The notes below the pieces were generated by a model. That model did no database searches, had not been told where the DNA came from, and saw only the letters and a list, made by a program, of their open reading frames with translations. A stretch of DNA of 64,000 nucleotides from Escherichia coli. Lineage in GTDB: Bacteria; Pseudomonadota; Gammaproteobacteria; Enterobacterales; Enterobacteriaceae. Within the stretch, counting starts at the first letter, position 1, and each line of letters begins with the position of its first letter. Both the position numbers and the translations under genes were made by a program. Shown here piece by piece: positions 1-13,180 of this stretch. The stretch lies in the NCBI RefSeq assembly GCF_024223415.1, contig NZ_CP100500.1; one strand, 5' to 3'.

Positions 1-1538
1 TATTCAGCTGGCAGTGCTATGCGCCACGGAAGCAGTTCGCTGACCCGGTTGACCGGCCAGTCTGCTATGACGCCAAGCACATGGCGAAGGTAGCTTTCTG
101 GATCCACGTCATTCAGTTTGCACGTCCCTATCAGGCTGTACAGTAGCGCTCCCCGCTCACCACCATGGCCAGAGCCGAAGAACAGGAAGTTTTTACGACC
201 CAGACTTACCGCCCGCAGGGCATTTTCAGCGATGTTGTTGTCGATTTCCACCCAGCCATCGTTCGCATAGTACGTCAGTGCCGGCCACTGGTTAAGTGCG
301 TACGCGAACGCCTTCGCCAACTCTGAGTGTCGCGACAGGGTCTTCATCTTTTCACGCAACCAGCTTTCCAGGGATTTCAACAGCGGTTTCGTTTTTCGCT
401 GACGTTCAGCAAGCCGCTGCTCTGCCGGCATTCCCCTTATATCCGCCTCTATGGCGTACAACTGACCGATCTGCTCCAGGGCTTCTTCCGTCAGTGCTGA
501 CGGGATGCGGACGTGCACATCGTGGATCTTTCGGCGGGCATGAGCCCAGCAGGCAGCTTCCGTTATCCCACCATTGCGATACAGCTCGTTGAACCCGGCG
601 TACGCATCCGCTTGCAGCACACCGCTGAAGCAAGCAAGATGAGTCTGCGGATGGATGCCTTTTCTGTCCGGGCTGTAAGCGAACCACACTGCAGGTGCCA
701 ACGCTGACCCGGCATTGCGGTCATCACGAACATACGCCCACAACCGCCCGGTCTTCGTCTTCTTATTACCCGGCATCAGTACCTGGACCGGGGTATCATC
801 GGCATGGAGTTTGCCGTCAGTCATGACATAGCCATGAAGCGCCTCTTCCAGCGGAGACAGCAGCCGGCAGCATGCATCCACCCAGCCCGACAGCAGTGAA
901 CGGCTCAGCTCCACACCTTGCCGGCCGTATATTTCTGACTGGCGATACAGCGGGGTGTGCTCTGCATACTTCGAGGTCAGCACGCGGGCCAGCAGCCCCG
1001 GTCCGGCGATACCCCGCTCGATGGGCCGCGAAGGTGCAGGTGCCTGCACGATGGCATCGCACTGAGTACAGGCATGTTTTTCCCGTACCGTCCGGATAAC
1101 CCGGAAGGCGCTACGCATCAACTCCAGCTGTTCGGCGGTATCCTCGCCCAGATAGCTCAGTGAACCGCCGCAGTTCGGGCAGCACGGCGCCGCAGGCAAC
1201 AGTCGCTTTTCGTCACGGGGTAGTGATTCAGGGAACGGCTTACGGATGCGGGTCTGACGCAACGGACGCTGTACTGCCGGGTCATACACCCTACCAGTCA
1301 GCGTATCGCTCTCTTTCTGAAGCTGGTTCAGATCGGCTTCCATTTGTGCGATACGGCGGGAGACTTTTTCGGAACGACTGCCGAAGTTCATCCGGCGGAG
1401 TTTATCCAGCTGCGCCTGCAGATGGTCTATTTCGCGCTCCCGGTTGCTCAGCTTTTCCTGCAGGGCGTGGATCAGCGCTTCCTGTTCGGCCAGGCGCTGT
1501 TTCAGCAGGAAGATGTCGTCAGAAGAGATGTCGTTCAT
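1..1538 (-). CDS. IS66-family transposase (orf3), about 512 aa; stop codon runs off the window edge so it is absent from the ORF track
   Basis: Minus-strand translation starts [30 protein letters not shown] at 1538, contains the CPNCGG motif near 1160-1200, and ends ...PWRIALPAE at position 3; no in-frame stop listed in that frame. Confidence 0.85.
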
Positions 1539-1587
1539 AAGCCCGTATTTTACCGGGCTTATTCTGTGACAACCAGGATAAAGAGAT

Positions 1588-1935
1588 TTACAGCATGGTC
1601 AGGGAGGTCAGCAGCCGCTTAGGCTGTCGCCAGTCGATACCTTCCAGCAGCATCGCCAGCTGCGCCTGTGTAAGGAACACTTTGCCATCACGGGCTGACG
1701 GCCAGGCGAAGCGCCCACGCTCCAGCCGTTTGGTCAGGAGGCACAGTCCGTCACCGGTGGACCACAGCAGTTTAACCTGACTGCCGCTGCGGCCCCGGAA
1801 AATGAAAACATGGCCGGACATGGGATCGTCTTTCAGCGCCGTCTGTACTTTCGCAGCCAGGCCGTTGAAGCCATTTCTCATATCGGTGATACCGGCAACC
1901 AGCCAAATTTTGGTCCCGGAAGGTAAAGGGATCAT
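1588..1935 (-). CDS. IS66 Orf2-like accessory protein (TnpB of IS66 family)
   Basis: 115-aa [33 protein letters not shown]..., matches the IS66 orf2 family from memory. Confidence 0.85.
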
Positions 1936-2333
1936 CGCTTCAGTTCCTGTATCAGCAGAGTCAGGAGCTTTTCGCTGACATTGCCATTGAAGCGGAGCGT
2001 CCCGTGCCGGAACGTTACCTCACAGCTGATACTGAGGGTTTCCGGGTCCTCTGCGAGCGATTCTGGCTGTTCGGCAGCTGCATCGAGAGTCACAGGAAGT
2101 AGCTGGGGGCTCTCTGAAGAAGGTAATAGCAGCTTTCCCTCGCGCCATTGTTGTCGCCATTTGAACAACAGATTGGCGTTAATGCCATTTTCAAGAGCAA
2201 GTTTTGAGATGGATATCCCGGGTTCACAGGAGGCAGCAACGAGCTGCTGTTTAAATTCGGGAGGATAATTAGGGCAGCCTTTTCGCCTGCCGGGAGTCAC
2301 ATTTTTCTGCATATCTGACACTTTGGTTCCCAC
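1932..2333 (-). CDS. IS66 Orf1-like accessory protein
   Basis: 133-aa ORF overlapping orf2 by 4 bp, as is typical for IS66 family elements. Confidence 0.75.
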   Translation of the reverse strand: MGTKVSDMQKNVTPGRRKGCPNYPPEFKQQLVAASCEPGISISKLALENGINANLLFKWRQQWREGKLLLPSSESPQLLPVTLDAAAEQPESLAEDPETLSISCEVTFRHGTLRFNGNVSEKLLTLLIQELKR

Positions 2334-2764
2334 TACTTATTTGGTGGACACCACTTTGTCTAATTCGTCAGATTCTGACCAGACGGTTCAGGCTGTACGC
2401 TTACGCCTGAAAGCTGACTGCCTCCTGCTGAGGTGGGAGGCTATGATTCAGTGCGTTTATAGTCTCCGGGGTATGCATGTACCGGAGCATACCATTTCTG
2501 GTGGATAACAAGCCGGCACATTCAGACTGCAGTGAAGATGGAGGCACCTGGTTGTGAAGAACGTTTCTGCCCGTGGCTGCTTCGCATCATCAATGGTATT
2601 CATACCCGCTCAGAAATGACCGGGTGCTGAAGCCCTCCGTTATCGCGCAGTATAATGACGTATATGATCTGTGGACGAGTGAGCGGCGTGCCTGATGTAC
2701 GCCGCTATTACTGTATTTTACCACAGGGCTGGTTTTCTGCTGCCAGCCCTGTGGTTCTCAGACA

Positions 2765-3373
2765 TCAACTGTGAGCGGCATCAACCGATGTACGGTATGC
2801 CATAAGCACGTACTGATCCATCAGATTTGTCAGTGGTTCACTCTGACCCTGACGTGCAATGATCCATTGCTCCAGATCTTTTTCTGATTTGTGTTTCAGG
2901 TTTTTCGTCCAGTCGTCAAGGCTGTTTCCGGTCATTAAGTCAAGCCAGCAGAGCCAGACCAGTTTGAGACGTAACTCCGTGCCGCCAAACTGACGGAAGA
3001 GGCTGATCAGTTTGTTTGCCAGAGAATGTTGCTTCAGGCGCTCACATTCAGACAGCAGGATCCCTTCCAGCATCGGATGATGAACCAGCAGGTGTTCGCT
3101 GGTGCATAAATTCACCACCAGATCATCATCCAGGGACGGGGAGCTCCGTTTGTCCGGACCATAAATCAGCCGGTGCAGACTCTGGGGAACGATGGCAATC
3201 TCCGGTTTTTCGCCATTGAATGACACCCACCCGGGCGTCAGATTATGGAAATAGTAGATATTCGGATGACACACGCCCCATGATACGGCGTGCCGGGTGA
3301 AGCCGGTCAGCCATTTCTGGTAGTTTTCATGGAGCAGCTCGTAACGGGTCTGATACTGTTGTTTCATTTTCAT
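2765..3373 (-). CDS. hypothetical protein, island-associated, co-transcribed downstream of the alpA-like gene
   Basis: 205-aa ORF; likely start at an ATG a few codons inside the listed GTG start, with a GAGGA ribosome-binding site upstream; no family recognised. Confidence 0.5.
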   Translation of the reverse strand: MKMKQQYQTRYELLHENYQKWLTGFTRHAVSWGVCHPNIYYFHNLTPGWVSFNGEKPEIAIVPQSLHRLIYGPDKRSSPSLDDDLVVNLCTSEHLLVHHPMLEGILLSECERLKQHSLANKLISLFRQFGGTELRLKLVWLCWLDLMTGNSLDDWTKNLKHKSEKDLEQWIIARQGQSEPLTNLMDQYVLMAYRTSVDAAHS

Positions 3374-3460
3374 ATTCCTCACGGGGGATAACAGGCAGCA
3401 GAGCGCCGCCGGCAGGCCGGAGATTGCGTCTGCTGTGGGCGAAGGGTTAGTGGTTAAAAA

Positions 3461-3667
3461 TTACGGACGGGACTGTGCAATACGCGCCTGCAGCCAGGCT
3501 TCCACTTCACTTTTCAGCCAGCGGGAGCTGCGCCCCATTTTGATGGGCGCAGGAAAGCCCCCATCTTTGATGAGTTTGTCAAACCACTTATCGGTTAGGC
3601 CGGTCAGTTGAGTGATAAACGCCATGTCGACCATCTGGTCATCCATCAGCGAAACTGGGGTAGCCAT
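3461..3667 (-). CDS. AlpA-family phage regulatory protein (excisionase-like DNA-binding protein), about 68 aa
   Basis: MATPVSLMDDQMVDMAFITQLTGLTDKWFDKLIKDGGFPAPIKMGRSSRWLKSEVEAWL - typical AlpA/MerR-like HTH; start placed at the internal Met. Confidence 0.8.
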   Translation of the reverse strand: MATPVSLMDDQMVDMAFITQLTGLTDKWFDKLIKDGGFPAPIKMGRSSRWLKSEVEAWLQARIAQSRP

Positions 3668-4792
3668 GAGAATGTTCCTCCGGATGTTGTTAAACCAGCC
3701 GGTGTGGTCATGAAAACAGCGCGCCACCTTCACCGGCATAACAACCGGGGAGAAACGTAAAAAATAATCGGGAATGTGGCTGTCCGGAGATAAACGGGGG
3801 GATTGCGATGGCAGAGCCGTAGCGGAATCCCGGAGGGGGGTGTTGCAAAAGATGCTTCCGCACGCACGCGCGATAAAGAGGGGATAGTTTTCGTGAGGAC
3901 AGGGAGAGAAGCAGGCGTTCTGATAATTGCAGAGTTGTTTTCGGAGGTGGTTACAGTGAGTCAGCCCGTTCCTGGCGAGCAGGAGACTGATATCACCGAT
4001 GGGATAAGGTTGTCTGATTGGTATTATAAATATAAGAAGTCATCAGAGAGTAACGTAAAGGATTTGCCAGAATAACCTAAGAGAGTAAATCTCTCCGGTA
4101 ACAGAGCGCTATGAAGCATTCTGTATCAGAGTGCAGATACATGAACGCTGATGCGTAAAATCAGCAGTGACACGCCAGCTCCCCCTATGCCCATTCCTGT
4201 ATAAGACATGAACTGAGTGTATTAATGCTTCTGCCCTGAGACTGAGCCGGTGAGTGAGGGGCTGAGAAATCCCTCTTGACACAGCTCTAACCAGAAATAC
4301 TTCCCCGGTTGTTGCGGTGCGTCCGGATCCCCGATAACGGAACACTAAGGCTGTATTGCGGGACACCGGGTAAGTAGCAGCCCGTAAGGCGTTCTGTCAA
4401 CGCCAGAAAAAATGATTTCCCACACGCGTTATAGACTCACTCCTGTGGACCTGGAAGCCCGTAACTCTGCGGTTGCCCACTGACTGACGGAACTGACCGC
4501 AAATTTTACGAGTGCGTGCTGGGCTTCAGTCTGGTCACCTGAGCGTTCGGTAACGGAGGCGCGGGCGGTAATAGGCTGATTTTCAGGTATTACCGGCTTA
4601 CAGCGTGTGGTTGATATTGAGGGGCTGTGAGTTTCGCGTATTTGTCAGAAACCCAGACGAGTTTTCCTGTATGGGACGAAATAAGGCAGCGGCAATACCT
4701 GGAAAAATTTAATATGGTATGAAGGAGAACCTGTCGGTTACGCTTAATATACCCGGTACACTGTCAGCTCAGGGGATACATGAACCGTTATC

Positions 4793-4993
4793 TCACCAGC
4801 TACACAGTATATACACACTGACGCTGACAGTAGTCAGCAGGACCACAATAATCAGTGCCAGCAGTATGGTAACGATACGGTCTGTATTCCGGTAATAGCC
4901 GAAGGGGTCGACAGAACCACAATACGGGCAACACACTGTATTATGAGTAATCGCGTTTCCACAGTCCCTGCACTTCTTTTTGCGTATCACCAT
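4793..4993 (-). CDS. small zinc-ribbon protein with C-terminal transmembrane helix (about 66 aa), function unknown
   Basis: CRDCG...CCPYCG double CxxC followed by a hydrophobic stretch ILLALIIVVLLTTVSVSVYIL; GGAGGG ribosome-binding site 5 nt upstream of the ATG. Confidence 0.5.
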   Translation of the reverse strand: MVIRKKKCRDCGNAITHNTVCCPYCGSVDPFGYYRNTDRIVTILLALIIVVLLTTVSVSVYILCSW

Positions 4994-5156
4994 CACTCCC
5001 TCCTCACAGCCTTACCCGTAACCGGTTTTTTACATTAAAAAAACAACGCTGAAAATTCAACCGTCAGTCCGGAGACGACCGTTCGGGTTATCACAGAGTG
5101 CCTGAGACAGTGTCCTGCCGGAGGTCACTTCAGGGACTCTGCGCATTTTTTACGAC

Positions 5157-5762
5157 GTGGCTATTCCGTATGAACCATACGGAGATTTAACCATGACCTA
5201 CAAATACAACCCCTTCTGGCAGCAACGTATTCGTGAGACGGTGCGGCACGCACTGAATGTTCATCCCCGCCTGACGGCATTGCGGGTTGACCTGCGTTTC
5301 CCGGATGTACCGGCAGCAACGGACGCAGCTGTGATATCCCGCTTCATCAATGCCCTGAAAGCCCGAATCGACGCTTACCAGAAACGTAAGCATCGGGAAG
5401 GTAAACGCGTGCATCCCACCACCCTGCATTACGTCTGGGCCCGGGAGTTTGGGGAGTGCAAAGGTAAAAAACACTATCACCTGATGCTGCTGGTTAACCG
5501 GGATACCTGGTGTCGTGCCGGTGATTACCGTGCTCCGGGATCACTGGCCGGGATGATTAAACAGGCGTGGTGCAGTGCCCTGGGAGTGGATGTCGGGTGC
5601 CATGCCACGCTGGTGCATTTTCCGGCCTGGCCGGCGGTGTGGCTGGAACGCGATGATGACACTGGCTTTCAGCAGGTGCTGGAACGTGCTGACTATCTGG
5701 CGAAGGAACATACCAAAGCTCACTGCACCGGTGAGCGCAATTTTGGCTGTAGCCGGAGTTGA
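5157..5762 (+). CDS. HUH-type rolling-circle Rep-like protein (inovirus Gp2 / YagK-YfjJ-like family)
   Basis: 201-aa ORF with the motif KKHYHLMLLV (His-hydrophobic-His) and candidate Tyr motifs; family assignment from memory, not searched. Confidence 0.55.
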   Translation: MAIPYEPYGDLTMTYKYNPFWQQRIRETVRHALNVHPRLTALRVDLRFPDVPAATDAAVISRFINALKARIDAYQKRKHREGKRVHPTTLHYVWAREFGECKGKKHYHLMLLVNRDTWCRAGDYRAPGSLAGMIKQAWCSALGVDVGCHATLVHFPAWPAVWLERDDDTGFQQVLERADYLAKEHTKAHCTGERNFGCSRS

Positions 5763-6015
5763 GCACGACTGGCGCGCCAATATCCGGCAAACCAAAAGTA
5801 TGGGTTGTTGTCTGGCGGCAACGATGTATCCACTCGCCCACTGACTGTTTTTTACGTCAGTGTTCCATTGTGTGACAACCACAGTGCTGTAACAGCAACC
5901 AGCCTGCTTTACCCAAACTCCAGTCCAGATTTTAACTGAACCGCCATTCACACCCTGACCACGCTGCCCGTACCGGGACGGCTGTTGCCTGCGTGTCGTC
6001 TGGCGGCTGAGGAAT

Positions 6016-6423
6016 ATGACTATGTACGCAAAATCCTTTATCGCTCTTGATGGCAACGGACGTCTGACGGGCGCCCGTACTGCACAGGCCGCACCTTATG
6101 CTAACTACACCTGCCACTTGTGTGGCAGTGCACTCAGATACCATCCGCAATACGACACTGAACTTCCCTGGTTTGAACACACTGACGACAGGCTGACAGA
6201 GCACGGTCAACAGTGCCCTTATGTCAGGCCGGAGCGCAGAGAAATACAGTTGATTAAACGTCTGCAGCAATTCGTACCGGATGCCTTACCCGTGGTGCGT
6301 AAAGCCAGCTGGCACTGCAGACAATGTCACCACGATTATTATGGGGAGCGGTACTGCACACACTGCCAGACCGGAGGATTCAGTATTCCCCGGACAACTC
6401 AGGAGGAAATATGCGAATTCTGA
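6016..6423 (+). CDS. Cys-rich hypothetical protein A (putative double zinc-ribbon)
   Basis: 135-aa ORF; conserved pattern CxxC...PWFEH...C...CxxC...DYxGExxCxxC shared with the next ORF. Confidence 0.55.
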   Translation: MTMYAKSFIALDGNGRLTGARTAQAAPYANYTCHLCGSALRYHPQYDTELPWFEHTDDRLTEHGQQCPYVRPERREIQLIKRLQQFVPDALPVVRKASWHCRQCHHDYYGERYCTHCQTGGFSIPRTTQEEICEF

Positions 6424-6821
6424 ACTGTTATATGGCGAATGACAGCAAAGGCCATTTTGTTACGGCGAAAGAAGCAGCGAAGCACAACCGCCAGGACGTT
6501 TTGTGCTGTGTGTCCTGTGGATGCCCGTTAACACTTCAGCGGGGCAATGACGGACAACCACCGTGGTTTGAACATGACCAGATGACTGTCGCTGAGAAAA
6601 TCCTGCTGCGATGCACCTGGCTTGACCCGGCAGAGAAAGAGGCCCGTCGTTTGCATCTGCAGGGTATGACGGTTCCGGATTATACGGTGAAGGTGAGAAA
6701 GTGGTTTTGTGTGATGTGTGACGAAGATTATGAAGGAGAAAAGTGCTGCCCGCGTTGTGGTACCGGGGTATACAGCAGGGAGGGGGGGCTGCAGGAAGGC
6801 AACTGGAAGGATAGGAACTGA
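6411..6821 (+). CDS. Cys-rich hypothetical protein B, paralogue of A, translationally coupled
   Basis: ATG at 6411 lies just upstream of the stop of the previous ORF (6421-6423); same Cys/PWFEH pattern. Confidence 0.55.
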   Translation: MRILNCYMANDSKGHFVTAKEAAKHNRQDVLCCVSCGCPLTLQRGNDGQPPWFEHDQMTVAEKILLRCTWLDPAEKEARRLHLQGMTVPDYTVKVRKWFCVMCDEDYEGEKCCPRCGTGVYSREGGLQEGNWKDRN

Positions 6822-7024
6822 GCGGTTCAGTCGCGGAAATCAGTTGCAGAGCTGTAATGATATCTCCGGGAGTGCTGCGTTGGTAGGGGCATCCCGGGAT
6901 AGAGAAATTTTAGCACTTTGCCCTGAATGATTGTAGACGTTCCGAGTACTCGTACCGGTCTGAGTTATTACAGTTAGATATTCACTTTTTCTCCCGCATA
7001 CTTCACATCTGTCAACGACGGATG

Positions 7025-8757
7025 AAAAGTGGTTCTTCCGCAACCTGGGTGGAAGAAAATGGATGAAACTTTCTGGCGAACAAGGATCTAAGCTGTTTTA
7101 AGTTATGGGCAACGCAATGCACTCTCTTAAGACACTTCTACAGTTACCTTGCGGATGGCGATGCAGTCGACAAATTATTAGCTCTGACGGTATAACCCTC
7201 CATCTCCACGGAAAACGCAAAACAGCACAATGTCCTGAATGCTTTAAGCGTAGCGACTCTGTTCATAGTTGTCGTCGGCGCCGGATACAGCATCTACCCT
7301 GCTCAGGGCAGACGCTATGGCTTGTATTTTCCGTCCGCCACTGGTACTGCCGTAACCCGGCTTGTTCACGTAAAATTTTTGCCGAGTCGCTTGCTCCCTT
7401 CGCCGGTTCACACCAGCAGTCTTCACAGGCGTTACAAAATTTACAACGTCAACTGGGATTAATAGCTGGAGGTGAGGCTGGAAAACGGGCTGCAACGGCA
7501 GCGGGTCTCCGTTGCAGTGCTGATACTCTTCTTCGCAGGGTATCAATACCCCGGAGACGAAACAGTCAGGCGCGCCTCATGTCGGTATTGATGAGTGGGC
7601 GTGGCATCGGGGCCACTGCTGCGGTATGTTAATAGTCAATCTTGATACTCACCGTCCCCTCGTCCTGCTTCCCGGCCGTGATCAGCGTACGCTGGCGACC
7701 TGGTTCAGAAAATATCCGGAAATACAGGTTGTCTCGCGTGATCGCAGTGGAGTCTATGCGACAGCAGCACGTGAAGGTGCACCTCAGGCCAGACAGGTGG
7801 CCGATCGATGGCACCTGCTAAAAAATATTGGTGATGAGCCTGAACGAATGATGTACAGACATATGCCTCTGATACGTCTTGTTGTCAGAGAGTTATCACT
7901 GAAGAAATCACCTGAGCCAGAAATATCTGTGCCTGTAGCATCGCTCCGTCGTCTGGAACGCCTTAAACAGCACATCCGCAAAAAACGGCATCAGCGTTGG
8001 ACAGAGGTTATGGCCCTGCATAACAAGGGATGTAGTTTCAGGGAAATATCCCGTATTACAGGCCTGTCGCGAGTGACAGTCAGTCGCTGGGTGGGTTCAG
8101 GAACATTCCCTGAAATGTCAACTAGGCCTCCAAAGCGAGGGCTTCTGGACCCATGGAGGGAGTGGTTAAAAGAGCAACGAGAATGTGGTAATTATAACTC
8201 CGGCCGGATATGGCGGGAAATGGTGGCCAGGGGGGTTACAGGCAGTGAAACCATCGTCAGGGATGCTGTTGCCAAATGGCGTAAAGGCTGGATCCCACCG
8301 GTTACTACTGCCGCAAGACTTCCTTCAGTGTCCCGGGTAAGCCGCTGGTTGATGCCCTGGAGAATAATCAGGGGTGAAGAAAATTATGCTTTCCGATTTA
8401 TTAGTCTGATGTGTGAAAAAGAACCGGAGTTGAAAATAGCGCAGCAACTGGTACTCGAGTTCTACCGTATTCTGAAAACCTAAAATAAATCACAGCTAAG
8501 CAGCTGGTTCACTCGGGTCCACGAAAGCGGCTCAGCAGAACTTCGGTGCGTAGCTGCGGGGATGGAAGCTGATGCTGCGGCTATATGTGAGGCAATCAGC
8601 AGTCGCTGGAGTACTGGTGTTGTCGAAGGTCATGTAAATCGCCTGAAGGTGCTGATACGCCAGATGTATGGTCGAGCCGGACTTGAACTACTTAGGCGGA
8701 GGGTAATGAGTCCACTGGCATGAAAATCTTCACCCAGGTTGCGGAAGAGCCACTTTT
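7025..8757 (+). mobile_element. ISL3-family insertion sequence with imperfect terminal inverted repeats, decayed
   Basis: Left end aaaagtggttcttccgcaacctgggtg at about 7025-7051 and its near-perfect reverse complement at about 8731-8757; encloses an ISL3-type transposase. Confidence 0.7.
7105..8722 (+). pseudogene. ISL3-family transposase, disrupted by a frameshift near 7588 and an in-frame TAA at 8481-8483
   Basis: N-terminal zinc-finger region (CPECF...), ...IDEWAWHRGHCCGMLIVNLDTHRPL readable only after a frame change, then ...VVEGHVNRLKVLIRQMYGRAGLELLRRRV continues in frame after the stop. Confidence 0.75.
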
Positions 8758-8766
8758 GCACTGTTC

Positions 8767-9095
8767 GTGACAGTATGGCCTTTATGTACTCACTTTGTTA
8801 CCGGTAGCTGGATCATCACTACCGTGCTGCAAATGGTGGTGAACAGCATCAATTGTGGAATGAATGTTGCCGAAGCGACCAATGCGCCTCGTTTCCACTA
8901 TCAGTGGTTGCCGGACGAGCTGCGTGTTGAAAAGGGTTTAGTCCGGATACGCTCAAGCTGCTGGATGCAAAAGGTCAGAAAGTGGCGCTGAATGAGGCGA
9001 TGGGCAGCACGCAAAGCATTATGGTTGGGTCGGATGGTGAGTTGTACGGCGCATCCGACTCGCGCTTGGTGGATGATTTAACGGCGGGGTATTAA
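8767..9095 (+). pseudogene. ggt: gamma-glutamyltranspeptidase C-terminal fragment, frameshifted in an A-run near 8935
   Basis: GSWIITTVLQMVVNSI...NAPRFHYQWLPDELRVEKG then, after a 1-nt frame change, FSPDTLKLLDAKGQKVALNEAMGSTQSIMVGSDGELYGASDSRLVDDLTAGY; starts directly at the ISL3 right end. Confidence 0.7.
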
Positions 9096-9134
9096 TTGAC
9101 ATCCCCCGGCGCAATGTGCCGGGGGATAATGGTT

Positions 9135-10169
9135 TTATGCGGTCAATAATCGTCCGGGATTATCGATACAGAGTTTTTTGAGGATCGTTTTATCGACGCC
9201 GCGCTCCGCCAGATAGGCCAGAAAAACATCTGGAACAAATCCCCAGCCATTACCGCCATTTTTAGCCCACATTTGTTTAAGGAAGACATCGTGGCTGAGA
9301 ACAAGCTGATCGGCGTATCCCAACTCAATGAGATGAGCGACGGCATCGGCAGTCTCCTGCACCCCTGGCGCTATTCCCTCTTTCGGGAAGGTAATGTCTA
9401 GGCCAATCATGTCGAATTCCAGCCAGACACCTTTATCAAGCATTTTCCGCTGATACGCCACGTCTTTTCCTGACGGATCCGAGTGTGCGAGAGAGACTTT
9501 ATTTGGCGAGACGCCCATTTCACCTAACACAATGTCGAGTACTTCATCACCGCGACGAAGCCAGCCCGGCATGTGAATATTCATCGCCACATGAGGATTG
9601 TTAATCTGTGCCAGCGAGGCAGCCCGCAAGCTGTTATGCTCGGCTTCGGTAAATGTCGGTGAAACACCTATTTCACCGATCATTCCGGCACGAATATCCG
9701 TATCGCCAATCCCTTGATTCAATTCTTTATCGATCGTTGTCGCCAGTTCATCAACCGTTTTATGAATTCTCTGGCTTTCAAATTTTTCCAGGTAGGGACC
9801 GGAGGAAGCAACAATATTCAGACCTGTTTTTAATGCGACTTCTCGTAATGCCTGCGCATCTCGTCCGATAGACTCAGACCCTGTGGCATCAATAATGGTG
9901 CGACCACCGAGCGAGATAAAGTTATTGATTTCGAAGATCACATCTTCAATAGGTTTGCGGTCCATATTATCAGCGCAGCAATAAGGATCGTGTTTTAATG
10001 CCCACTGGATTTCTGCCGTGACTTTTTTATCAACAAGCCGTTGTGAAAAAGGATAGCAAGGAGCATCCACAACAGAGGAAAGATCGTTGAACAGATGTTC
10101 ATGAGGAAGTGTTAGCCCCATATCTTCACGGGCGACGGGGCCCGTCACAGTTTGTAGATAATCTTTCAT
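9135..10169 (-). CDS. phosphotriesterase-family metal-dependent hydrolase (Php-like, TIM-barrel amidohydrolase; possible lactonase)
   Basis: 344 aa; N-terminal GLTLPHEHL metal-binding motif characteristic of the PTE family. Confidence 0.8.
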   Translation of the reverse strand: MKDYLQTVTGPVAREDMGLTLPHEHLFNDLSSVVDAPCYPFSQRLVDKKVTAEIQWALKHDPYCCADNMDRKPIEDVIFEINNFISLGGRTIIDATGSESIGRDAQALREVALKTGLNIVASSGPYLEKFESQRIHKTVDELATTIDKELNQGIGDTDIRAGMIGEIGVSPTFTEAEHNSLRAASLAQINNPHVAMNIHMPGWLRRGDEVLDIVLGEMGVSPNKVSLAHSDPSGKDVAYQRKMLDKGVWLEFDMIGLDITFPKEGIAPGVQETADAVAHLIELGYADQLVLSHDVFLKQMWAKNGGNGWGFVPDVFLAYLAERGVDKTILKKLCIDNPGRLLTA

Positions 10170-10171
10170 GA

Positions 10172-11137
10172 TTATACCTCCATTTTCTTCATTGTTTTCG
10201 AGGTTCTGTATTCCGGAATAGTGGTAACAATTGCACCGACCAGTGCAAACAGTGTTCCGATGATCGTGACCAGATAAACGCTATTGCCCAGCGATGGAAT
10301 TAATACGTCAATCAATACTGATCCCAGTAACTGGCCCGCCGTTGAAGCAACCCCCAGCATCAGTAACCCCAGACCTCTGACCAAAATGGCCATTAAACCG
10401 ATAGACATTAGTCCAAGCGGGCCGCCAAGATACATCCACCAGACATCTGGTAATTGAACAGTGACGTGCCCTAATGCGACACGAATAGCAAGCGCTGTGC
10501 CTAAAACACAAAATCCAACGATGAAATTCTAGGTGATTGAAACCAGCATGGATCCCGTAGCTTCAGCTACTTTTGCATTTCCAGCGGGCTGCCATCCTGC
10601 AAGCAAACCAGCTAAGAACGGAAGAATGGCAAGTAAGATGAAAGAGGTAGAATGCCACTGAGGTGACACAACAAAAATCGTAGCAATAACCGCAAATAAT
10701 GCACCGATGATGCAATAAGGGGTAAAGTATTTTTTCTCGTCGACACCGATACCAAAGCGATCGCAAAGTAAACCAGACAGCAATAGCGCGGAGATCAGTG
10801 CGGTTTGAAACGTTGCGACCCCGAGTGCGCTGGCTGATGCGCCTTCAGAAAATACCACCATCGCTCCACAGAGACCGGCAAACCAGTTCCAGAGAGGAAC
10901 TTTTCGGTTTTTAATCAGAGAAGGAATTGCCGCAAATTGTTGCCGGGTTTCTTTTCGCGCCATAATAATAAAAAACATCACGACTAAACCACTGGCAAAG
11001 GAGATAACTGCGCATGCATTACCATCCTGTAACCAGTGACCTAATTGACCATTCACCGCTGATTGCATAGGGGAGAGCATACCCGCAAGAATCGTGGCAA
11101 GCATCCATAAGGGAGTTGAGTACTTATTCTTTTTCAT
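10172..11137 (-). pseudogene. DMT-superfamily (DUF606/YdcZ-like) membrane transporter interrupted by an in-frame amber codon at 10529-10531
   Basis: ORFs 10529..11137 and 10172..10435 are in the same frame; the sequence between them encodes hydrophobic helix-like residues; the single TAG (plus-strand cta) separates them. Confidence 0.7.
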
Positions 11138-11193
11138 ACATCAATCCTTCTATTATAGTAAATGGAGTAACTGGAGTTACCCCATTATTATTA

Positions 11194-11952
11194 TTATCTT
11201 GCAATATGAGTCAGTATATTTACCCACAACGCGGTATAGAACGGCCAGGACATAAACTGCTGTGTACCCCAGTGCGGTGAACAGTCACTCATAAAGCAGG
11301 CTATTTTCCCGTTGTGATAGTTACCAAAGACCAGTAATGGAGCGTTGTTTATTGTTAATACCACCTCAGCATTTTCTTTAGCGATCGCCCGGTTATAACC
11401 TAGGAAAAAAGGATATTCAGAGAACCCTTTAATAACTGGATGTTCAGGTTGTGATGGCTGTGCAATAACACCCTCTGGTTTTTCGACACGATCGTCACCA
11501 TCTAACATCGTAACCGGGAGCACATCAGCCAGAACTGTATTTTTATAATTGGCTTTTGCTTCAATTCCCATGAATGAGAGATAGCCGCCAATCATCAATA
11601 ACCCACCACCGTTATTCACATATTCTTTAATCAGTTCGAGAGCGTTTGGTTTTATGCGAAGCTGATAAAAAGTATCATTTTGTAGCAGGAAAGTATTACT
11701 ACCAATATCACTAATAACGATGGCATCATATTGTTCTAACTGTGCCACATCTTCAGGGAAGGCAATTTGTACCGTATGTGCTGGCATATAGGTGACATCT
11801 ACCTGACTATTTTTCAGACACTGGAGTAACCAGGTCGCACCTTCTTCATATTTACTTGAGGTAAAACTGTCATATCCTTTTGAATGAATCATATGAATAT
11901 GCCAGGATTCCCCAATAAAGAGCACTTTTAGTGATTTTTTGGTGTTATTCAT
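11194..11952 (-). CDS. ThuA-like / class I glutamine-amidotransferase-like domain protein
   Basis: 252-aa ORF; fold assignment from sequence impression only. Confidence 0.45.
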   Translation of the reverse strand: MNNTKKSLKVLFIGESWHIHMIHSKGYDSFTSSKYEEGATWLLQCLKNSQVDVTYMPAHTVQIAFPEDVAQLEQYDAIVISDIGSNTFLLQNDTFYQLRIKPNALELIKEYVNNGGGLLMIGGYLSFMGIEAKANYKNTVLADVLPVTMLDGDDRVEKPEGVIAQPSQPEHPVIKGFSEYPFFLGYNRAIAKENAEVVLTINNAPLLVFGNYHNGKIACFMSDCSPHWGTQQFMSWPFYTALWVNILTHIAR

Positions 11953-11965
11953 TCTCTGTCCCTTC

Positions 11966-13180
11966 TTAATGCGTAAAAATAGTTTGCTGATAATGTATAC
12001 TCTGAATTCGATGTATCACAGATTCATGTTCAGGCATGTCGGAAGCATTGCTTGTCTCCACCGCTAGGGATGCAAAGGCGCTGGCATAACACAGTGCTGA
12101 TTCCAGTGATTTTCCTTTCGCAAGTCCTGATGCCAGAGAGCCGTTAAACGCATCCCCGGCTCCTGCCGTATTTTTAACGACCGCTGGAAACGCTGGCGAA
12201 TGAATGAATTTTTTGCCATCAAATGCGAGCGAGCCCTTGCTACCGAGCGTGATAACCGTGTTTTTTACCCCTTTATTGTGGATAGCTTCTGCAGCTCGTT
12301 TAGCTGATTCAAGATCGTGTACGTCTATGCCGGACAGTAAACCAGCTTCTGTTTCATTGGGGGTGATATAATCAACATCCTGAATAAGTTCGTTGACGAT
12401 ATCATTATAGGGTGCCGGGTTAATAATGACCGGGATACTGTTTTTTTGCGCCAATGTGATCGCTTGTTGCAGAGCGGTATAATTTGTTTCGAGCTGCAGA
12501 AGTATGACATCAGAATTAATAATCGCTTCTTTCTGAATAGTTATTTCATCGGACGACATTGTCATGTTGGCACCGGGATAGATCGCAATAACATTATCGC
12601 CAGTACCTTCATTAACAAGGATCGTGGCAGTTCCGGTTTGCGTTTCTTTCGTTTGATAAATTATACTTTTATAAATCTTAGACGAATTCATAAAGTTGAT
12701 CGCATAATCACTAAAGTGATCTGTACCTACTTTTGTTATGAAATAAACATCAGTATCGGCAAAGCTTGCTGCCAGCGCCTGGTTACAGCCTTTTCCCCCC
12801 GGTGAAAATATAAAATTACTTGCCAGAAGCGATTCTCCGATAGTGGGAAGCCTCGGCAAATAACTGATGATATCAACATTAAACGAACCAATAACGCATA
12901 CTTGACTTTTCATAGTTGAGTGGCCTTTTTTTATTCCCTGGGCTGTATCATAATTTTCAAGCGCATAAGCGATTTCATTTTTCGCAATAGTATCAAGCGA
13001 GTCTAGGACGATAAAAGCACCGCCATGACATCGAGTCAGATAGCCAAGCCTGGCAAGTTCATTAAGATCTGAACGAATAGTTTCTTTCGTTACATTGAGG
13101 CTATTGGACAGATCGGATACTTTTACAGAACCGAATTTACTGAGTCGTTTCAATATTTCATGATGGCGTTCAAATTTCAT
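11966..13180 (-). CDS. fusion protein: N-terminal DeoR-type HTH plus PfkB/ribokinase-family carbohydrate kinase
   Basis: N-terminus HHEILKRLSKFGSVKVSDLSNSLNVTKETIRSDLNELARLGYL (DeoR HTH); kinase motifs GGKGCNQA and NTAGAGDAFNGSLASGL. Confidence 0.7.
   Translation of the reverse strand: MKFERHHEILKRLSKFGSVKVSDLSNSLNVTKETIRSDLNELARLGYLTRCHGGAFIVLDSLDTIAKNEIAYALENYDTAQGIKKGHSTMKSQVCVIGSFNVDIISYLPRLPTIGESLLASNFIFSPGGKGCNQALAASFADTDVYFITKVGTDHFSDYAINFMNSSKIYKSIIYQTKETQTGTATILVNEGTGDNVIAIYPGANMTMSSDEITIQKEAIINSDVILLQLETNYTALQQAITLAQKNSIPVIINPAPYNDIVNELIQDVDYITPNETEAGLLSGIDVHDLESAKRAAEAIHNKGVKNTVITLGSKGSLAFDGKKFIHSPAFPAVVKNTAGAGDAFNGSLASGLAKGKSLESALCYASAFASLAVETSNASDMPEHESVIHRIQSIHYQQTIFTH

Follow-up and report, generated by a model that had tools for sequence, protein, structure and literature searches.

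A block of three plus-strand genes occupies positions 5193 to 6821 of a 64,000-nucleotide stretch of Escherichia coli DNA (RefSeq assembly GCF_024223415.1, contig NZ_CP100500.1; the whole stretch is called the window below). The first gene encodes a Rep-like protein of the YagK/YfjJ family, and the second and third encode two small paralogous zinc-finger proteins, which we call type A and type B. We put the probability that this trio belongs to the conserved backbone of life-cycle genes in an integrative island of the CP4-44/CP4-57 type, of the kind inserted at tRNA or tmRNA genes, at about 55%. Such an island is probably a satellite-like mobile element, in which the block would most likely serve excision, replication and regulation, with the zinc-finger pair as an accessory. 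We regard the trio as backbone and not as cargo because its genes stay constant while the cargo changes and are linked to AlpA and the Rep-like gene. The lack of a PADLOC match, the lack of a homologue in 50,697 phage records, and the purifying selection on gene 1 and type A point the same way. The three genes and the translation signal between the last two are as follows.

5193 to 5762, plus strand: gene 1, a YagK/YfjJ ('inovirus Gp2') family protein of 189 amino acids, putative HUH nickase or rolling-circle initiator, with the motifs RVDL, HYHLMLLV and YLAK
6022 to 6423, plus strand: gene 2, zinc-finger protein type A, 133 amino acids, with a predicted DUF7828 C2HC finger and a predicted Zn_ribbon_11 C4 ribbon
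6401 to 6406, plus strand: AGGAGG, the ribosome-binding site of gene 3 as read from the sequence, within the end of gene 2
6411 to 6821, plus strand: gene 3, zinc-finger protein type B, 136 amino acids, a paralogue of type A whose gene overlaps the type A gene by 13 nucleotides

Linkage of the three genes to an integrative island

We collected 54 loci with a degenerate DNA pattern, made by hand, in a scan that covered a single genome of each species, and ran our own hidden Markov models (HMMs) for YagK, AlpA and the zinc-finger family on them. Linkage was counted in the 22 loci that had at least 2.5 kb of upstream sequence. A YagK gene was found on the same strand within 4 kb of a zinc-finger gene in all 22 loci, and an AlpA gene was present in 21. 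The conserved neighbourhood with the Rep-like gene, which had been raised in an initial annotation of this DNA made from its letters alone, is therefore real and extends across genera. The commonest gene order is YagK-AlpA-ZnR(-ZnR), where ZnR stands for a zinc-finger gene, with the variants AlpA...YagK-ZnR and AlpA-x-ZnR-YagK, and the same gene context was found in metagenome contigs and on a Klebsiella IncHI1B plasmid.

All of the 54 loci come from Enterobacterales except for two contigs labelled Collinsella, and the genera include Yersinia, Budvicia (with seven copies), Serratia, Pectobacterium, Hafnia, Salmonella, Klebsiella, Citrobacter, Photorhabdus and Mixta. The two exceptions (L060 and L061) are contigs of one actinobacterial metagenome-assembled genome that carry the module, and the zinc-finger genes of L061 are very close to those of E. 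coli; our guess is that they reflect bin contamination. Within E. coli the block is very common. At least 80% of the segment from 5100 to 6900 is present in 3,235 of 5,426 complete genomes, at up to nine places per genome, and the three open reading frames (ORFs) are 94-100% identical in thousands of E. coli genomes. The dN/dS ratio of gene 1 and type A lies between 0.11 and 0.24, with type A at about 0.18.

The place of the module in the island is fixed. On one side lie genes for a GTPase, DUF932, antirestriction, RadC/JAB, DUF987 and CbeA/CbtA proteins, and on the other side lies variable cargo, followed by a tyrosine integrase where one is present. The cargo may be an arsenic resistance locus, a SMEK/CTD10/MC6 system, a Hachiman-like HamA with a helicase or the fec operon, and in the window it consists of metabolic genes and insertion sequences (IS). 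An anti-phage defence or anti-defence role for the trio, or for the zinc-finger pair alone, had been entertained in the initial annotation, and these islands do carry defence genes directly downstream (the Hachiman-like HamA with helicase, SMEK/CTD10/MC6, and AbpAB beside yfjJ of strain K-12). However, the trio remains constant as the neighbouring ars, fec, metabolic and defence cargo changes, it is linked to the life-cycle genes for AlpA and the Rep-like protein, and its zinc-finger proteins have no effector or enzymatic domain. PADLOC-DB v2 returned no match for gene 1 or type A, and for type B only PDC-S64 at a non-significant E-value of 0.067. A tblastn search of the same phage records with type B gave no homologue. 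A role as defence cargo thus appears very improbable, and for the purposes of genome annotation the block is better read as island backbone than as a candidate defence system.

The window between 4700 and 7100 is 100% identical to many complete E. coli genomes, including that of strain S88, in which the trio is located in a CP4-44-type island between cobUST and tmaR. No integrase is annotated across the whole S88 island (cobU to tmaR). The block had been described as lying in an integrase-less island remnant next to an AlpA-like regulator, and both parts of that description proved accurate. The relevant genes are as follows.

3461 to 3667 (to 3739 in its longer form), minus strand: AlpA-family regulator or excisionase, which matches our AlpA HMM with an E-value of 7e-41
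2765 to 3382, minus strand: protein of 205 amino acids (p205) of an unnamed family, a recurrent backbone member with homologues beside AlpA

The AlpA protein of the window is 65% identical to that of a Klebsiella plasmid and is named 'helix-turn-helix/AlpA family' by RefSeq; its score against the excisionase family TIGR01764 is below the cutoff. In most other genomes the AlpA gene lies between the YagK and type A genes. The window has no AlpA gene there, and its AlpA gene is divergent from the trio. The p205 gene of the window comes immediately after its AlpA gene, and the protein has no match in Pfam, NCBIfam or PHROG. Its homologues, which are 28-62% identical, were found in 17 of the fetched loci beside an AlpA, YagK or zinc-finger gene, nearly always right after AlpA, and in Mixta the order is AlpA-p205-YagK-A-B with all genes on one strand. 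Judging from this recurrence, p205 looks like a further conserved and unnamed backbone family.

The missing integrase, the IS66, ISL3 and IS fragments found throughout the island, the inversion of AlpA relative to its usual order and the many truncated or frameshifted database entries would also be expected if the trio were an inert remnant of a decayed element in the present genome. We consider this improbable, since the ORFs are intact and nearly identical in thousands of E. coli genomes (see above), the metal ligands are invariant across Enterobacterales, gene 1 and type A have dN/dS values clearly below 1, and both the 13-nucleotide overlap and a leader element upstream of the type A gene (see below) are conserved across genera.

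Gene 1 encodes a putative HUH nickase

The product of gene 1, which contains GKKHYHLMLLVN, matches the Pfam family YagK_YfjJ_C (PF11726) over its full length (E-value 1.1e-47, model positions 1-170 of 170) and, weakly, the family REP_ORF2-G2P (PF23343, E-value 4.7e-5). RefSeq labels it 'inovirus Gp2 family protein', and among the PHROG families it matches phrog_25019, which has no assigned function. An HUH motif in the form of HYH, HIH or HFH plus hydrophobic residues is present in all 39 distinct YagK relatives from many genera (HYHLMLLV in the window), as is a Y(L/M/F)xK motif (YLAK in the window), and an RVDL-type motif was found in 32 of the 39 by the pattern used. The HUH-like motif that had been pointed out in this protein is thus corroborated. 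The HUH motif with its hydrophobic residues and the single YxxK motif are common to gene 1 and to HUH Reps such as inovirus gpII, the SIRV1 ORF119 Rep and the nuclease domain of parvovirus NS1.

The best fold matches of gene 1 were also to HUH Rep nucleases, but these were weak for a structure predicted from a single sequence and not from an alignment. Sequence searches of the PDB gave nothing meaningful, and none of the three proteins is covered by a model in NCBIfam. In the phage records gene 1 has one match, to an unannotated 4.4-kb 'phage' record. Together, the families and motifs support the assignment of gene 1 as an HUH Rep-like protein and putative nickase or rolling-circle initiator.

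The zinc-finger pair

The products of genes 2 and 3 are ancient paralogues with 31% identity (E-value 3e-16) and the common signature CxxC...PWFEH...C...CxxC...DYxGExxCxxC. In an alignment of 33 family members, the columns C33, C36, F53, H55, C68, C100, C103, C113 and C116 are invariant. They include the seven cysteines, and the histidine of the PWFEH motif, reported earlier for the two proteins of the window. Seven invariant cysteines and one invariant histidine (that of PWFEH) are enough for two zinc sites, which we predict to be a C2HC site (C33, C36, H55 and C68) and a C4 site (C100, C103, C113 and C116). A degenerate DNA pattern derived from these motifs (WFEH...W-C-x2-C...C-x2-C) has exactly two matches in the window, compared to 0.00 expected in shuffled sequences. 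We also considered an HNH/His-Me nuclease as an explanation of the 'FEH' motif and rejected it, because the first zinc site requires this histidine as its fourth ligand and the alignment shows no other conserved catalytic residues.

The initial annotation could not assign these proteins to a named family, and this has to be corrected. In Pfam, type A matches DUF7828 (E-value 2.8e-31) and then Zn_ribbon_11 (1.3e-9), type B matches DUF7828 (7.9e-31) and then Zn_ribbon_11 (5.7e-18), and all 33 aligned relatives match both families. In thousands of genomes RefSeq names the proteins 'putative zinc ribbon protein' or 'zinc-ribbon domain-containing protein'. Both DUF7828 and Zn_ribbon_11 are functionally uncharacterised, and no functional study of zinc-ribbon families of this kind (DUF3279, PF11682, PF25165, 'putative zinc ribbon protein') was found in the literature searched. 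The zinc-finger family has few members: at an E-value of 0.001 or better it is matched by only 268 of 1.84 billion cluster representatives. A Foldseek search of AFDB50 returned only the family itself, and Pfam scans detected no enzymatic or effector domain in it. In UniProt, many entries of the family bear the name 'DNA-directed RNA polymerase, beta subunit/140 kD subunit', and a single entry is called 'Competence protein'; the first of these names is apparently an annotation error that has spread between records.

The family falls into two types, one beginning with MYAKSF (type A, including gene 2) and the other with MRxLKCY (type B, including gene 3). In all 16 tandem pairs type A precedes type B, and single genes of either type were also found. 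Type B diverges faster than the other genes, with 33-51% identity compared to 61-66%, and within E. coli its dN/dS is 0.91, a value derived from small counts of 15.5 non-synonymous and 4.5 synonymous changes (6411-6821 compared to locus L076 1616-2050). Faster or diversifying evolution of type B is therefore possible. The proteins are near neutral (median pI 7.6), and this property and the faster divergence of type B keep open a role in protein-protein contacts, for example with a helper phage or with RNA polymerase.

The N-terminal half of the zinc-finger proteins is related to the N-terminal zinc finger of CoiA, a competence nuclease that acts on DNA. Residues 6-73 of the family align with the first 58 residues of streptococcal CoiA with an hhalign probability of 96.1% (E-value 3.5e-9, 58 columns), and the CxxC motif, the (W/H)FxH motif and the next cysteine coincide in this alignment. 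Streptococcal CoiA fragments in the database carry precomputed DUF7828 matches, and direct matches to the Pfam family CoiA_N (PF25164) are below threshold, with 8 of the 33 members reaching an E-value of 0.1 or better. The profile match argues that the N-terminal half of the pair is a CoiA_N finger without the CoiA nuclease. Unlike CoiA, which has a PD-(D/E)XK nuclease domain and a C-terminal region, the pair has a C4 zinc ribbon instead, and no match to the CoiA nuclease domain (PF06054) was found with Pfam in these proteins of 133-136 amino acids. No role has been assigned to the N-terminal finger of CoiA (bioRxiv 10.1101/2024.02.06.579203).

Several sequences related to the pair deviate from its usual form. 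The database protein P0041 consists of a type B N-terminus joined at PWFEH to a type A C-terminus, which suggests recombination or deletion between the paralogous genes at the conserved motif. Several other database entries are frameshifted, truncated or chimeric. In some loci a protein of 160-177 amino acids takes the place of type A before type B (L012 87-569; L008 7458-7991 and 9537-10067); this alternative partner belongs to Pfam UCP030791 in L012 and to the p205 family in L008. A mini-ORF of 45-52 amino acids with a Zn_ribbon_11-like CxxC...CxxC pattern, absent from the window, lies between AlpA and type A in several loci, at the following sites.

L002 5729-5863
L016 7247-7405
L024 1596-1730
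L013 4903-5037
L051 672-812

Gene boundaries and transcription

All three plus-strand ORFs were found intact and in the place where they had been described. The longest ORF of gene 1 extends from 5157 to 5762, and the start at ATG 5193, which has GGAG 8 nucleotides 5' of it, is favoured by RefSeq and by the family alignment. Gene 2 has an alternative ATG at 6016 (6 nucleotides before 6022), and the longest ORF of gene 3 opens at 6324, which is not the family start; the latter is ATG 6411. Translational coupling had been proposed from a gene 3 start codon overlapping the gene 2 stop. The genes do overlap, but over 13 nucleotides, as the ATG is at 6411 and the stop codon of gene 2 is at 6421-6423. 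This overlap recurs in loci of Escherichia, Klebsiella, Hafnia, Siccibacter, Superficieibacter, Tenebrionibacter and Mixta.

The genes had also been called a three-gene operon. Here, the genes and their strand stand, but a spacer of 259 nucleotides separates genes 1 and 2. A promoter and terminator scan found no terminator-like site on the plus strand of this spacer, which makes a single transcript of all three genes plausible. The sites found by the scan in this region, including the promoter candidate of gene 1, are not above the expectation from shuffled sequences. A scan of positions 1-12000 with Rfam detected no RNA family, and a repeat search around the module gave only short two-copy repeats of doubtful meaning. 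The promoter candidate and the leader element discussed in the next section are located as follows.

5029 to 5056, plus strand: sigma-70-like promoter candidate 5' of gene 1, TTTACA-16-GAAAAT, from a consensus scan only
5963 to 5982, plus strand: leader element 5' of the type A gene, conserved across genera

A leader element upstream of type A genes

The element GCTGCCC-N5-7-GGGACGGC, followed by CTGC..G, is located 5' of every type A gene and is nearly invariant in 23 loci from many genera. It occurs in one copy per locus and only at this position. The element can fold into a 7-bp hairpin containing a bulged A, in which 98% of the cells are paired across the 23 sequences and one invariant pair is U-G. 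A hairpin is plausible from the alignment, and the element may act as a leader in the RNA, as a hairpin in the DNA or as a site bound by a protein, which makes it a candidate target for YagK, AlpA or the zinc-finger pair. An intrinsic terminator was rejected as an explanation, as the hairpin has no U-tract.

Comparison with described islands and satellites

In gene content and arrangement, the surroundings of the module agree with those in two island groups described in 2025. According to a preprint (PMC12458937, section 11), E. coli has tRNA-inserted elements that encode an integrase, an excisionase resembling AlpA and an HUH 'Rep-like RCR initiator', together with a RadC/ArdB/CbtA-CbeA module and payloads of defence genes or fec; phage-satellite behaviour was proposed for these elements. 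The Pseudomonas island I55, which has a core of IntY, AlpA, Gp2-like and RadC proteins, was shown to excise, to form circles or concatemers, and to be transferred through transduction by a jumbo phage (PMC12595487, PNAS). Neither paper mentions DUF7828/Zn_ribbon_11 proteins, and the copy in the window differs from both groups by its lack of an integrase. Hence, the description of the block as a new module is appropriate for the zinc-finger pair but not for the class of element, and the block is another copy of a catalogued kind with catalogued protein families. What we add is how closely the genes are linked, the constant order of A before B, the homology to CoiA_N, p205 as a partner of AlpA, and the leader element.

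The closest relatives of gene 1 in strain K-12 are YfjJ (CP4-57) and YagK (CP4-6), which belong to the same family, have the HUH and YxxK motifs and lie in a similar island context beside AlpA. In CP4-57 the order is alpA-yfjI(DUF3987)-yfjJ, followed by the AbpAB defence genes. Unlike gene 1, yfjJ is thus preceded by yfjI, and no zinc-finger genes come after it. Neither a zinc-finger gene nor a remnant of one was found in CP4-44 or CP4-57 of K-12, and for this reason the pseudogenes yoeG and yoeH were rejected as zinc-finger remnants.

When compared to the features of P4-like satellites and phage-inducible chromosomal islands (PICI), the island of the window has AlpA and a Rep-like gene, its integrase is absent and no hijack genes were recognised. 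P2 Ogr and P4 Delta are small zinc-binding proteins of satellites with a P4-type integrase, and their genes lie close to that of an AlpA/Vis-type regulator; as a tandem duplication, P4 Delta is reminiscent of the A/B pair. The pair might connect the island with a helper phage or with transcription in the host, as an Ogr/Delta-like transactivator or adaptor that turns on genes of the helper or of the island, and not as an accessory of replication. Its proteins would suit this role in being small and near neutral, with two zinc sites and no enzymatic domain, and their genes are likewise found beside an AlpA/Vis-type regulator in elements with a P4-type integrase. The restriction of the pair to Enterobacterales, set against the broader distribution of YagK and AlpA, would fit a host- or helper-specific adaptor, as would the faster evolution of type B (identities and dN/dS as given above, the latter from small counts). 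However, each protein of the pair has two sites (C2HC and C4), whereas Ogr and Delta have one C4 site, and the Ogr_Delta HMM (PF04606) gave no match to the zinc-finger proteins in Pfam scans with E-values of up to 10. There is also no known helper phage, no homologue was found in the phage records, and the N-terminal domain is common to the pair and the DNA-processing nuclease CoiA. We consider such a role rather unlikely.

A possible mechanism

The backbone reading of the trio leads to the following scheme, whose biochemical steps are all inferred; what the sequences show directly is the family membership of the proteins, the conservation of their motifs, the linkage and order of the genes, and purifying selection. 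AlpA would promote the expression of the integrase and excision of the island. The YagK/YfjJ HUH protein would then nick the excised circle at an origin and prime rolling-circle replication. The zinc-finger paralogues, made together from their overlapping genes, would form a small non-enzymatic accessory or regulatory pair, which might bind DNA, RNA or a partner protein and thereby assist or control the replication and expression programme. The hairpin-like leader 5' of type A would be a candidate target.

Several points weigh against this scheme. Islands with YagK and AlpA exist that do not have the zinc-finger pair (CP4-57 of K-12 and the Pseudomonas islands), so that the pair is not needed for the core chemistry of the HUH protein. 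As the pair is also found only in Enterobacterales, it is likelier to be an adaptor or regulator than a part of the nicking chemistry. Its near-neutral pI gives no support to general binding of nucleic acids. The leader hairpin has only one covarying pair, the closing one, and its folding energy is unexceptional for a GC-rich stretch. Furthermore, the copy in the window is probably inactive as a mobile element, since its AlpA gene is inverted, its integrase is absent and IS elements are abundant. It would therefore represent an immobilised copy of the island that has lost its integrase.

A more specific proposal is also possible, and we offer it tentatively as one that is more likely to be wrong than right. 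The A/B pair could be dedicated to assisting HUH-initiated replication, or the exploitation of helper phages, in the very large family of satellite-like islands of Enterobacterales, a function in which it would so far have gone unrecognised, with GCTGCCC-N5-7-GGGACGGC as the recognition site of the pair or of YagK and possibly as the replication origin.

Much of the accessory gene content of E. coli resides in such islands, including defence systems, fec, Ag43 and toxin-antitoxin pairs, and the islands are present in most genomes, in many of them in several copies. AlpA, p205, YagK, types A and B and the hairpin represent a short parts list for their excision, replication and helper-phage dependence.

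Neighbouring genes in the window

An ORF of 67 amino acids on the minus strand (4793-4996), divergent from gene 1, encodes a protein with a CxxC...CxxC zinc ribbon at its N-terminus and a hydrophobic helix at its C-terminus. RefSeq calls it 'hypothetical', its weak PHROG matches are of unknown function, and it was found only in the E. coli copies. Directly after gene 3, an ISL3-family transposase gene (7105-8723, plus strand) is split into several ORFs; in S88 this gene is a pseudogene with an internal stop. IS66 tnpA/tnpB genes are located upstream of the module (1588-2333, minus strand), and S88 has an additional ISEc43 between AlpA and gene 1, which is absent from the window. The adjoining cargo (9135-13180, minus strand) is metabolic. 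Its products are a phosphotriesterase-related protein, a glutamine amidotransferase, a DMT transporter whose gene appears to be divided between two ORFs, and a PfkB kinase that has a helix-turn-helix at its N-terminus. Beyond this cargo lie IS fragments and cobUST.

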